NCBI GenBank assembly: GCA_005191425.1
Contig: SUPR01000147.1
Location: 1-6,706 of the forward strand
Source: Candidatus Helarchaeota ASGARD archaeon Hel_GB_B
GTDB taxonomy: Archaea > Asgardarchaeota > Lokiarchaeia > Helarchaeales > HEL-GB-B
Reading direction: 5' to 3'
DNA: 6,706 nt
A program made the translations under genes and the position numbers. Below are positions 1 to 5,388 of this stretch, in pieces. Each line of letters begins with the position of its first letter. The first letter of the stretch is position 1. The notes under the pieces are model-generated. The model saw only the letters and a list, made by a program, of their open reading frames with translations, made no database searches and was not told where the DNA came from.

Positions 1-1
1 C

Positions 2-880
2 TGAATAATAGGAATTTCCAAGCATTACAGGTTGTTTTTCATAATATCCAATTTCTCCATTTTTTGATGCACTTCGAGATATATATGGCAATTCCAAGTC
101 TATAAAGTCTACATAGACCCATTCTATAATTATCTCAATGGTGATCCTATCGTCTGATGACGAAGGGTCCTTAATTTCGATCGTCCATAAAGTCCATGAA
201 TAATTTAATTGAAAAAATAGTGCGAACATAAAAAGGAGCCCGACTATTATCAGGAAGCTTATAGTCATTGTTATAATTTTAAAAGCCAATATTATACAAG
301 CAAGCACGAGAATAATGATTTTGACAGCATTTTCGAGGGCTTGTTTGGCGGACTCAGCGAAGGAAGCCAGGAGTTTCAAGCCCCAGTTAGCCAGGAATTG
401 AAATAATTTTACGAACAAGTAGATGGTGGCTAGTATTGGCATTGCTACCAAGATTAAGCCAGTTATTAAAAGGAGCAACCAGACAAACCAGCTATTGGGT
501 TTAGGACCGGTAGGGCCATTTCGGGTTTCTTGTGCGTCGAACGGGACCAATTTTAGTATATCAGAGGCTAGACCTAACTTTTCTACGCTACCCGCTTTAT
601 TGCAGACTTTATATTCATAAACTTCATAATCAGTGGCGTTTTTGAGCAGCAGGTATAGTATTGCCATAGCTTCATCGGCTGTGGTCTGGTTTTTAGAAAT
701 AACGCCTTCAACGTGTTCACTTACAGAATCTTCATTTCTATTTATGCCATAAAAGTCAGCTGCAATTCCCGAAGCAGAATTCTCGCTCAATACGTCCGGT
801 ATCTCTTGGTTTTCAATCATTGCATGTAATTTAGTATTTAAGAATAGGCTAACAGGAATTAAAATTACGTTAATGCCCTT
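2..880 (-). CDS. Partial cassette gene, copy 1: N-truncated conserved module plus variable membrane tip, running off the left edge
   Basis: Hand translation gives a stop-free minus frame from 940 (in-frame TGA at 943-941) to base 2; first ATG at 820. It reads KGINVILIPVSLFLNTKLHAMIENQEIPD...VPFDAQETRNGPTGPKPN...WGLKLLASFAESAKQALENAVKIIILVL...WVYVDFIDLELPY...GYYEKQPVMLGNSYYS. Clear paralog of 2742-4199. Absent from the ORF track, probably because it has no stop in the window. Confidence 0.9.
302..868 (-). repeat. Conserved module, inverted paralogous repeat of 2721-3287
   Basis: 189 codons align without gaps to 2721-3287, 143 identical residues (~76%, hand count), with many synonymous differences. 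Confidence 0.95.
324..369 (-). repeat. 46-bp perfect inverted repeat, arm 1
   Basis: Exact reverse complement of 3220-3265 (TGGCTTCCTTCGCTGAGTCCGCCAAACAAGCCCTCGAAAATGCTGT). Confidence 0.97.
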
Positions 881-1031
881 TACGAATGGTTCAATTGGGT
901 CCTGGATATAAAAAGGATCTTGTATTATTAGGAGATACTCTCACCTATCAAACTAAAATTAACAACCCGTTATCAAATGAAGAGTCTGAAGATATTGAGA
1001 GCGCACCATTTAAACATGAATATATATATAT
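874..1031 (+). pseudogene. Probable upstream fragment of a third variable tip, out of frame with 1016-1672
   Basis: The frame of the 886 ORF reads GYKKDLVLLGDT, resembling GYYEKQPVMLGNS in the copy 1 tip. One extra AT unit at 1020-1031 would fuse it to the 977-1672 frame. The similarity is short. Confidence 0.5.
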
Positions 1032-1672
1032 CTTCGTTTCTTATCGGATTATCAATAACACTCACTACATTTGCCATTATATTTGGTATCTGGGGGCTAA
1101 TATACGACATAAATGATAATTGGGCCAGGTGGTGTATGCTTGTTATAATTCTTACAGCAGTTGCTTTAGTACTAGGGTGTATTTTACCGTTCTTTTCCTA
1201 TAATAAGGAGTTGCTGGAAGCGAATCCACTATTTTTAATAGTAGGAATACTTGTAGGAATCTTTTTAGCTGGCGGAATGGTGAGCCTTGCGTGCTCAGAA
1301 GACGAATCAAAAACTTATTATAAAGGGTCGAAAAAGGCGATCTTTAATTTTATAGTGGCAATTATTGGGCTTATAGCAGTTGTTTTAGATATAAGATGGA
1401 TAAAAAGTACCGTAATTGAGAGCATCATTGCGTTTATCATTCTTGTGTATATACCATTCATTCTGGCGATGCGAGCTATTTATAAAACTGTTAGTAATAC
1501 TGATAAAATTAAGATAGTCGCAAAAATTCTGGCTATTTTAGGATCTATTGGTGTTATAATTGCTTTAATTTGGATTGGATTTATAAATGAAAAGATAGCA
1601 TCTTATAATTTGGTTTATTATTTATTTATAATTTTATTGATAATTCATACAATGGTATTGATTATAATATAA
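1016..1672 (+). CDS. Multi-pass membrane protein (~7 hydrophobic segments by eye), probably the C-terminal TM bundle of a cassette tip
   Basis: ORF 977-1672 with an in-frame ATG at 1016. Weak similarity to the copy 2 C-terminus: PLFLIVGIL/PFLLIGIL, AIFNFIVAIIGL/YILNLIVFLIGF, VVLD/FLLD, IESII/IESSL. Confidence 0.75.
   Translation: MNIYISSFLIGLSITLTTFAIIFGIWGLIYDINDNWARWCMLVIILTAVALVLGCILPFFSYNKELLEANPLFLIVGILVGIFLAGGMVSLACSEDESKTYYKGSKKAIFNFIVAIIGLIAVVLDIRWIKSTVIESIIAFIILVYIPFILAMRAIYKTVSNTDKIKIVAKILAILGSIGVIIALIWIGFINEKIASYNLVYYLFIILLIIHTMVLIII
1020..1031 (+). repeat. (AT)6 dinucleotide tract at the frame junction
   Basis: ATATATATATAT is present in the sequence. Confidence 0.9.
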
Positions 1673-1906
1673 TAAAAATTAAATAAAATATATCAAATCA
1701 ATTTATAAAATTTATTAAAAAAGATATAGATAAGATGGATATAATTATTAAATTGAGAGCGTTTTTATTAAATTAAAAAAATATTGATAAGTATTTTATT
1801 AAATTATTCTCTTTTAATATAATTAGATTAAAGTGAAATGATATTAATTATTTAGAAAAAAAAGTAAAAATATTAAATAGCGATAAAAATGTTAGACCAG
1901 AGCATT
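1673..1906 (+). promoter_or_regulatory. Very AT-rich intergenic spacer; may contain the promoter of the downstream membrane gene
   Basis: TATA-like TATTAAAT at 1871-1878 after a purine-rich run, ~30 nt upstream of ATG 1907. Such matches are weak in sequence this AT-rich. Confidence 0.3.
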
Positions 1907-1909
1907 ATG

Positions 1910-4199: not shown

Positions 4200-4290
4200 A
4201 TTAATTTAAAAATTAAATAATAATAAAATATAATGATATGGAAAAAAATATATAAAATAATTTAAATTTAAAGATTTTCGATTAAGTTTT

Positions 4291-5316
4291 ATGGGTTATA
4301 ATATAATGGAATTAATAGAAGACCTTTTAGAATTACCCTATAATGAAAATTATTTATTAGGAATGGTTGTACTTTTTTTAGGAAGTATTTTAAGTTTTTA
4401 TTATATTTATTTTAAAATAAAAAATAAAAATAAACTAAAGGAAAAATATAATTCAATTAATGATATTAAAAAAAAGCTTAAAACATTAGAAAAAACCATT
4501 AAAATTAGATTTAATTATTTTTCAATAATTAAGATATTTTATATATCAGCAATACTCATATTCGATCATATTTGTTGGCTCTTAGTAAATCAGACAGATC
4601 CTACGGGTATAATATTTTATGAATATTTCCTATTAATTAGATACACATGTAGTGTAGTTTTTATACTACCTATGTTTGATTATATAATAATCATGACACC
4701 AACATATATTGTCGCATTTGGAAAATTAATAAATTTTAGAAATAAAATGTTGTATTTTATAAAAAATTATGAAACCAATTATGAAAATGGAACTTTGATG
4801 CATGTCAATGGAACAACAAGCGGAGAATTTTCTGAATATTTTGGTATTATAAAAAATTTAAAAAGAATGAATTTAGACCAAAACAAATTTATTTTAATGA
4901 CAACAATTGAAGTTTTCATATTTTGTATCTTTATCCCTTATTTTTGGCTGATACCAATTACATTACTATTTTTTTCAATGAATAATATTATTATAAAATG
5001 TATAAGACAAATAATAAGAGAATTATATAATTTAGAACTCAGAATTAATAAAGGTCATAAAAATGATAATGTATTCTACAAAAAAGTTTCTAATTTTATG
5101 ATAAATCAATTAATTCTACAGATAACAATTTTTTTAATAAAAGAACTTTTTATATTTATTATATTTAAAGATCAAATCTTTAATAATTATATTGGTATCG
5201 TTTTTCCAATATTTATTTTTATAATTATCGAGTTTATAATTTTTCTAAGTATAATTTTATTTGAATTTATCTCAATAATAAAATATAAAAAATATATAGA
5301 AGGATCACAAAAATAA
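4291..5316 (+). CDS. Multi-pass membrane protein, putative cognate partner (immunity-like) of copy 2
   Basis: 341-aa ORF (alternative start ATG 4306), very AT-rich, about 6-7 hydrophobic segments, Lys-rich loops; no recognisable family. Confidence 0.8.
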   Translation: MGYNIMELIEDLLELPYNENYLLGMVVLFLGSILSFYYIYFKIKNKNKLKEKYNSINDIKKKLKTLEKTIKIRFNYFSIIKIFYISAILIFDHICWLLVNQTDPTGIIFYEYFLLIRYTCSVVFILPMFDYIIIMTPTYIVAFGKLINFRNKMLYFIKNYETNYENGTLMHVNGTTSGEFSEYFGIIKNLKRMNLDQNKFILMTTIEVFIFCIFIPYFWLIPITLLFFSMNNIIIKCIRQIIRELYNLELRINKGHKNDNVFYKKVSNFMINQLILQITIFLIKELFIFIIFKDQIFNNYIGIVFPIFIFIIIEFIIFLSIILFEFISIIKYKKYIEGSQK

Positions 5317-5338
5317 AAGAATGAAAAATAAGGCATAT

Positions 5339-5357
5339 AGGAAACTTCGAGTTTTTT
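5339..5357 (+). terminator. Possible terminator: weak hairpin overlapping a T6 tract
   Basis: AAACT-TCG-AGTTT stem-loop with T6 at 5352-5357, between convergent genes. The stem is short and AT-rich. Confidence 0.25.
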
Positions 5358-5388
5358 CAATGCCCAATCCATGCAGAATGGTCCGACT
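5356..5388 (+). repeat. 33-bp relic of the conserved module (FNAQSMQNGPT)
   Basis: 30/33 identical to 3048-3080 (FDAQAMQNGPT); only 20/33 to the matching codons of copy 1. Confidence 0.9.

Follow-up and report, generated by a model that had tools for sequence, protein, structure and literature searches.

Polymorphic toxin systems such as Rhs, CdiA and MafB centre on a large surface protein whose body is conserved and whose C-terminal part is hypervariable; a small cognate gene lies directly downstream, and 5'-truncated spare copies keep a conserved stretch. Their mosaic identity points to homologous recombination, and their distribution is patchy and varies between strains (Zhang et al. 2012, PMC3482391). 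All these features recur in the family of the locus analysed here, a stretch of 6,706 nt (hereafter the window) that makes up the whole of contig C55 (SUPR01000147.1) of a metagenome-assembled genome (MAG; 3.54 Mb, 28% GC, 94% complete) and carries repeated cassettes composed of a conserved module, a variable tip and a downstream partner gene. The family of these cassettes differs from the bacterial systems in lacking both YD and FHA repeats as well as the VENN and DPxGL motifs, and in having no context of two-partner secretion (TPS) or of type VI or type VII secretion systems (T6SS, T7SS), and no sequence or fold relation to them. Its variable part is a predicted six-helix membrane domain and not a soluble toxin, its host is an Asgard archaeon, and toxicity and immunity would apply to it by analogy only. 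The arrangement is familiar from bacterial contact-dependent toxin/immunity and self-recognition loci; the parts found here are undescribed.

Specificity determined within membranes has been described before. Ionophore toxins acting in contact-dependent growth inhibition (CDI) are polymorphic membrane-spanning helical bundles neutralised by highly polymorphic cognate CdiI proteins, which within one group are about 30% identical (Halvorsen et al. 2024, PMC11630599), a value that equals the 30% identity between the partner of cassette A and partner 1 of our locus. In contrast, the delivery by two-partner-secretion filaments, the VENN cleavage, the five-helix bundle and the receptor-hijacking entry domain of the CDI ionophores (PMC11630599) were not visible here, and no homology was found. 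The passages on pairing in the work on Proteus mirabilis IdsD and IdsE (Cardarelli et al. 2015, PMC4471559) describe allele specificity set by variable predicted membrane-spanning subdomains of adjacently encoded proteins. In those passages IdsD is a T6SS substrate without described orphan arrays; it has no homology to the family here, in which binding would be an analogy. The nearest archaeal analogue is VARTIG of the Thermococcales, a large Ig-type surface protein with a recombining hypervariable C-terminus, variable downstream genes and a layout like that of polymorphic toxin systems, to which the authors found no counterpart beyond this group (Makarova et al. 2021, PMC8416519). VARTIG varies an Ig domain, whereas here a transmembrane (TM) bundle varies, which is attached to a separate conserved module, and truncated cassettes abound; by description, the six-helix membrane variable part and the Asgard class set the family apart from VARTIG (arCOG07710). 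Searching the literature for polymorphic or contact-dependent systems in Asgard archaea, we found no account of the module/tip family.

In pilE/pilS and the R64 PilV shufflon, promoterless truncated copies share a conserved segment with the expressed gene, and in shufflon-type systems copies in inverted orientation share a short, perfectly repeated sequence where the constant and variable parts meet. A perfect inverted repeat of 46 nt is also present in the window. However, the locus showed neither an Rci-type recombinase nor sfx-like sites, what varies is no exposed adhesin tip, and each cassette has its own partner gene.

Organisation of the locus

In the window, orphan 3'-end cassettes from a family of giant surface-protein genes form an array. 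The features of the window are listed below; labels in L, G and C denote the loci, genomes and contigs compared (G000 being this MAG), and GC3 is the GC content at third codon positions.

2-259, minus strand: start of the tip of cassette A, which exits at the window edge; the complete tip (to residue 518) is visible in L035
260-820, minus strand: conserved module of cassette A, ATG at 820, with a predicted extracellular alpha/beta head, TM helical hairpin and start of a beta-sheet
324-369, minus strand: copy in A of the 46-nt repeat (the handle), identical to 3220-3265 inverted, encoding LASFAESAKQALENAV in the hairpin loop
821-940, minus strand: pre-module remnant of cassette A, an open frame without start codon, homologous to longer relatives from about 907
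902-1672, plus strand: tip3 cassette, a module-less tip with a broken frame; identity is 80% with tips on the metagenome contigs L041 and L042, and 35% with tip A
1938-2684, plus strand: partner 1, intact, 248 residues, 5 hydrophobic segments
2712-3320, plus strand: conserved module of cassette B; open frame from 2712, with homology beginning at 2721 and ATG at 2769
3220-3265, plus strand: copy in B of the 46-nt handle, also identical in the L034 cassette
3321-4199, plus strand: variable tip of cassette B, with sheet end, linker and six predicted membrane helices; GC3 0.19
3462-3503, plus strand: last conserved motif, W.Y..[FIL].D[LM]ELP, with a near-invariant P; the second tip copy on C11 begins here
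4291-5316, plus strand: partner 2, intact, 341 residues, 6-7 hydrophobic segments; GC3 0.14
5356-5388, plus strand: module relic of 33 nt (FNAQSMQNGPT), 40 nt past the partner 2 stop

The open frame of cassette A extends from 940 to 2 on the minus strand and that of cassette B from 2712 to 4199 on the plus strand. An independent assembly from ENA (L035, 11.8 kb) was 99.9% identical across all 6,706 nt and extended further, which argues that the layout of the window is no assembly artefact. There, cassette A was complete, with 518 residues and its own partner gene 35 nt after the stop. Both module copies described in an earlier reading of this DNA (the original prediction) were real, with the correction that copy A is cut by the window start and is complete in L035. 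The named protein homologs belonged to Candidatus Helarchaeota or Lokiarchaeota, indicating that the host is an Asgard archaeon, as the label "probably archaeal" had anticipated.

The conserved module and its N-terminal truncation

Modules A and B were 60% identical over 249 amino acids (BLASTP, E 2e-95), in agreement with the proposal of two N-truncated copies of one module of about 190 residues. The similarity stopped sharply past '...ENAVKIIILVL', where the GC content and GC3 also dropped, corroborating the abrupt switch into a divergent AT-rich tip. The GC content was 0.42-0.44 in the modules and 0.22-0.25 in tip B; GC3 was 0.41-0.43 in the modules, against about 0.30 for tip A, tip3 and partner 1, 0.19 for tip B and 0.14 for partner 2. 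The GC3 of the modules (260-820 and 2769-3320) is thus far above the 28% GC of the genome and above that of every tip and partner; GC-biased gene conversion among copies may be one cause.

The homology between A and B began upstream of the ATG, within an open frame lacking a start codon, and went on in-frame in longer homologs, showing that both cassettes are N-truncated. When they were aligned with the long proteins, the in-frame homology was unbroken across the points where A and B start, and the Met called as start in A and B corresponded to Ile, Thr or Lys in the long proteins. The sequence of module B resumed 27 nt past the partner 1 stop, and the relic after partner 2 matched 30 of the 33 nt of 3048-3080, so that a module fragment does lie 27-40 bp after each partner stop, as had been noticed previously.

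Full-length relatives and distribution of the family

The long homologs that the prediction called for were found in relatives, in which the same module lies 220-940 residues from the C-terminal end of open frames of 1,514 and 1,815 residues (same genus), 2,074, 2,353 and up to 6,008 residues. These giant proteins have an N-terminal signal-like hydrophobic or TM segment and several PKD domains. Pfam analysis of four long homologs detected PKD domains and minor TSP3 and DUF4625 matches, and neither RHS/YD repeats nor the CdiA signature (TPS domain, FHA repeats, VENN and CdiB); the boundary motif here is W.Y..D.ELP. The N-terminal signal/TM segment was the only export feature seen in the giants; the loci examined contained no secretion-system genes, and a processing motif was not recognised. 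One giant of the same genus (L025, G001:C134, 401-7405) is cut by a single in-frame stop into frames of 820 and 1,514 residues, which could reflect a sequencing error, a pseudogene or read-through.

A main gene together with truncated copies was present in G104:C51, a 109-kb contig of a relative whose genome is 97% complete. The order there is a 3,941-residue full-length gene, a 193-residue open reading frame (ORF) with two TM segments, a 771-residue N-truncated copy, a 162-residue ORF and a truncated copy of at least 717 residues. The copies shared 93% and 51% identity with the main gene in the pre-module region and 65-74% in the modules, and the three tails had no BLAST similarity to each other, which is the pattern of one long gene plus truncated copies with different tips that had been proposed as a check. 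The unit of module and tip followed by a small, mostly multi-TM ORF recurred in G001, G006, G007, G016, G021, G029, G089 and G114, and arrays of 5'-truncated orphans with homology to the main gene were found in the window, L034, L040, L007 and G104:C51. A conserved region with a hypervariable C-terminus and 5'-truncated orphan arrays, both generic properties of polymorphic toxins, are therefore present.

A profile search of 1.84 billion representatives recovered 399 family members, 266 of them at E<=1e-10, with lengths of 127-5,870 residues. The family comprises at least 399 clusters at 50% identity, none of them annotated, and many of its short members start at differing positions within the module. 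Matches occurred in 35 of 400 genomes of the phylum, 33 of which belonged to the class of the window (Lokiarchaeia/Helarchaeales); among the genomes searched, the single-contig ones of family f5 gave no match. The family is accessory, patchy and almost entirely limited to this class of Asgard archaea.

All the family copies found in this MAG were truncated: A, B, one on C104, two fragments on C137 and, on C11, a copy of the tip alone. The C104 copy is 59% identical to the same-genus giant, and its homology begins directly after a stop. The original prediction placed a full-length gene outside the window. This pattern exists in G104:C51, but the pre-module region of a full-length gene was not detected in this 94%-complete MAG by tblastn with the long homologs and 50 pre-module regions, which matched only the truncated C104 copy; giant ORFs running off contig ends (C156, C149 and C42) had no similarity to the pre-module region of the family. 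One C137 fragment (G000:C137:20202-20579) is a pre-module piece with one stop that ends in '...VSLF', the point where A and B begin, and the other (G000:C137:9103-9411, minus strand) is a module fragment with two stops. The C11 copy (G000:C11:9783-10383) is a second A tip, 99.2% identical over 601 nt and beginning exactly at the W.Y motif; it follows an AT-rich spacer downstream of a histidine-kinase gene, exits at the contig end, and may be either an orphan consisting of the tip alone or a strain variant that binning placed in the MAG.

Variable tips

The tails of 129 representatives fell into 41 BLAST components, and nine proteins of the Helarchaeota clade with modules 53-99% identical carried seven tip classes unrelated by BLAST. 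Iterated searches connected some of the classes and most tails had about six hydrophobic segments, suggesting that they may share one ancient six-helix fold. A Pfam scan of the 129 tails detected Peptidase_C13 in one and lipase-like domains in one, the others giving no match. In a few tips, enzymatic domains follow the TM part, such as the Peptidase_C13 (legumain/caspase-like clan) of P0009, a fragment related to which lies downstream of P0003; L036:2037-2687 is listed with these tips, and one tail has lipase/esterase-like matches.

The probable third tip that had been placed at 886-1672 proved to be real at about 902-1672. It is cut at about 902, head to head against the A remnant, while the tip3-like tips of L041 and L042 are still joined to a truncated module. 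Relative to L041, an (AT)n insertion of 4 nt near 1020-1029 disrupts the frame of tip3; the (AT)n run at 1015-1029 is a dinucleotide repeat that could slip, and simple decay is equally possible.

Partner genes and their linkage to the tips

The two multi-TM genes predicted downstream of the plus-strand tips (1938-2684 and 4291-5316) were confirmed as partners 1 and 2. Partner 1 was 78-85% identical to partners located after tip3-like tips elsewhere; in L041 and L042, tip3-like tips are followed by partner-1-like genes (78%), and in L034 a partner-2-like gene (55%) comes after a B-like tip (67%). Tip A and tip3 are 35% identical, and their partners share 30% identity with each other. Among 22 tip/downstream pairs, similarity between partners accompanied similarity between tips in 5 cases and occurred in 0 of 220 pairs without tip similarity, a count that is descriptive only because related loci are not independent; the partners of six weakly similar tips in this set had no detectable similarity. 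Each tip also matched its own partner in base composition (GC3). Tips and neighbours thus co-vary between loci, as had been expected, and the downstream gene resembles an immunity gene in position and co-variation, protection being an analogy only.

Partner 1 was intact next to the frameshifted tip3, and in L044 a partner-1-like gene follows a module fragment from which the tip has gone entirely. Tip and partner were unrelated to each other according to hhalign. Complex prediction with the A tip and the A partner gave a score of 0.00, which, with shallow alignments and an uncertain partner fold, is no evidence either way.

The 46-nt handle and possible recombination sites

The handle is perfectly identical in A and B against a module background of about 72% DNA identity and a dS of about 2.9 (saturated). 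It specifies the TM hairpin loop and is located about 50 nt before the end of the A/B similarity. The same 46-mer was identical in the L034 cassette, in which homology starts merely about 30 nt upstream of the handle, and had 2, 6 and 8 mismatches in L036, L007 and L041, respectively. A second class of junctions was found at the W.Y..D.ELP motif, exactly where the tip copy on C11 starts. L034 and L051 have the order A tip, A partner, truncated B-like cassette and partner, whereas in the window B lies inverted on the other side of A, the strains being near-identical. A recombinase gene was absent from the window and from the 11.8-kb contig, including any tyrosine recombinase of the shufflon type, and the sole gene of mobile type was an IS240-family DDE transposase. 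We infer that units of tip and partner were probably exchanged by homologous recombination within the conserved module.

Selection on modules, tips and partners

The dN/dS ratio was 0.08 between modules A and B, 0.53-0.59 between tip B and its L034 relative and 0.44 for partner 2. Frames of 476-518 residues remain open despite the 28% GC of the DNA, and in neutral simulations at the observed divergence 0 of 3,000 kept either frame open. Judged from these substitution patterns, the tips and partners appear to stay open under selection.

Structure predictions and family searches

The module was modelled confidently with AlphaFold2 from an alignment of 90 sequences (pLDDT 86). The model comprised a small alpha/beta head, two helices of about 42 residues forming a hairpin, and a five-strand sheet; the model of full-length B (pLDDT 79) had six additional helices in the tip. 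The near-invariant N-x-S/T sequon of the head, together with the basic hairpin loop, suggests a topology in which the head and sheet would be outside and the hairpin loop inside.

None of the searches gave a significant relation to described proteins. The best hit of the module model against the Protein Data Bank (PDB) by Foldseek had E 0.1, a wide VIA search gave a best Z of 6.7 with generic helix/sheet arrangements, and the only match in the AlphaFold Database clusters was a member of the family itself (A0A7K4CRK9). A PDB sequence profile search returned only an MscS-like chain (E 0.2), and in a protein atlas partner 2 had a best score of 0.77, a lead only. Pfam, NCBIfam and PADLOC matched no family with module, tips or partners; a known housekeeping membrane family, which would have spoken against the proposed system, was thus not recognised. 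The full B model had a best E of 0.04 against the PDB, also non-significant. Its Foldseek rows (2769-4196) included polycystin-1/2, TRPML, CorA and class B G-protein-coupled receptors at a non-significant E of 0.06-0.25 and a TM-score of about 0.1, with a root mean square deviation of about 20 A in the CorA and polycystin/TRP rows. A superficial likeness to polycystin-1 exists in the giant PKD ectodomain, the extracellular sheet and the six helices, with no evidence of kinship.

Flanking genes

Two genes lie beyond the module relic:

5393-6169, minus strand: DEDDh/Rv2179c-like 3'-5' exonuclease gene (Pfam 27.9 bits against a cut-off of 27)
6593-6706, plus strand: first 38 codons of the IS240-family DDE transposase

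Together, the exonuclease gene and the transposase delimit the array and truncate a further module copy to 33 nt. The same transposase lies beside another copy of the handle in the metagenome contig L049. Beyond the insertion sequence (IS), L035 contains housekeeping genes; such genes flank the array in both L035 and L044, and a viral or plasmid origin was rejected on this ground. An alternative genetic code was rejected as well, given that translation table 11 leaves all frames open.

Interpretation of the tip/partner pair

The structural and evolutionary part of our reading, a polymorphic orphan-cassette array of tips and partners shaped by homologous recombination, is well supported; in architecture, the locus corresponds to polymorphic toxin loci that contain orphan cassettes, and membrane specificity has precedents. 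By analogy, tip and partner would form an allele-specific pair in the membrane, and their most likely role would be that of a contact-dependent effector and its protector. For the explanation as a whole, comprising the orphan-cassette array, its exchange by recombination and this role, we consider the chances of being right and wrong to be about equal.

The full-length proteins (1,500-6,000 residues) have a signal/TM start, many PKD domains, a membrane-proximal module and a hypervariable tip of about six predicted helices, and the gene directly downstream encodes a small, equally variable and usually polytopic membrane protein. According to this explanation, new units of tip and partner would be swapped in inside the conserved module, for which the handle and the W.Y..D.ELP motif are the proposed sites; spare or displaced units would survive as N-truncated cassettes, a situation known from the Rhs, CdiA and MafB loci. 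A membrane-active tip would reach the membrane of a neighbouring cell, where only the cognate partner could neutralise it, and the outcome may be competition or kin discrimination between Asgard strains.

Several observations weigh against the functional part of this explanation. The tip is polytopic and located at the C-terminal end of a protein expected to be anchored in the membrane of its own producer, and neither a cleavage site nor a mechanism of release, a secretion system or a transfer route was evident at the loci examined, which argues against an action on other cells. No known toxin fold was found among the tails, either in the Pfam scan of the 129 or in fold searches of the models. 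The downstream genes of L026, L031 and the second copy (c2) of G104 lack TM segments, and the dN/dS of about 0.5 in tips and partner fits relaxed constraint too. Since no full-length gene was found in the MAG, the cassettes may have no recipient gene here. None of the sequencing runs listed as matching the locus was an RNA run. A conflict or identity system, as inferred in the original prediction, would be a candidate function by analogy, neither toxin fold nor delivery route having been found. Its analogy with CdiA, Rhs and MafB held for the architecture of the locus; there is no homology to those families.

A doubtful but still plausible alternative is that the tip is a variable anchor or receptor acting in cis: tip and partner would assemble in the membrane of the producer, for example as the channel- or receptor-like base of the giant adhesin, truncated copies would be promoterless donors for gene conversion (as in pilE/pilS) or inversion (as in a shufflon), and exposed loops would vary under pressure from viruses or predators, no protein moving between cells. 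Such a role would suit an integral six-helix domain without release signal, the lack of a start codon in several cassettes (the C11 copy, the L034 cassette and tip3), the mutual inversion of A and B around a perfect 46-nt repeat, and the sequon of the head, which fits an exposed stalk. However, the most variable part is embedded in the membrane and not exposed, the locus has no recombinase gene, inversion between A and B would merely exchange two truncated 5' ends, and an intact partner beside a dead or deleted tip is unexpected if the partner serves only its own tip in cis.

We regard as unlikely the possibility that the cassettes are decaying duplicates, i.e. truncated pseudogene debris of a fast-evolving surface-protein family generated by duplication, IS activity and rearrangement, with the downstream gene as a mere operon partner. 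Decay is indeed apparent in the frameshift of tip3, the 33-nt relic and the stop-containing module fragments of C137, the adjoining IS240-family transposase could have contributed, and no full-length gene was found in this MAG. In contrast, frames of this length would survive neutrally in such AT-rich DNA in less than 1 of 3,000 simulations, the two truncated modules have been strongly constrained (dN/dS 0.08), the handle is conserved at the nucleotide level among cassettes, and the same unit structure occurs in at least eight genomes of several genera. Finally, chimeric joins in the metagenome bin, suggested by a short contig that ends inside a repeated gene and by C11, which joins a 99% A-tip copy to unrelated DNA, are a highly improbable source of the truncations and junctions, because L035 reproduces and extends the window, JGI contigs from other samples show A with its partner as well as the L034 arrangement, and at least ten metagenome runs from several studies each contain at least one fifth of the sampled words of 2712-5316.

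Significance

Asgard archaea are the closest prokaryotic relatives of eukaryotes, and how they recognise or fight each other is nearly unknown. The family reported here bears the genomic hallmarks of a two-component specificity system that is polymorphic and whose parts are not detectably related to those of bacteria. Should the pair act between cells, this would be the first Asgard cell-cell discrimination system according to the literature searched, with its specificity located within the membrane. A bolder proposal, which we hold to be improbable, is that Lokiarchaeia/Helarchaeales own a contact-dependent self/non-self system with a six-helix membrane determinant at the foot of a giant PKD adhesin and a cognate polytopic partner. 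If this were true, membrane proteins would pass between Asgard cells via membrane contact, vesicles or transient fusion, and such passage would bear on partner-recognition and membrane-merging models for the origin of eukaryotes. Even on a conservative reading, the family provides a new conserved C-terminal anchoring module of giant surface proteins and a clear archaeal case of cassette-type recombination.

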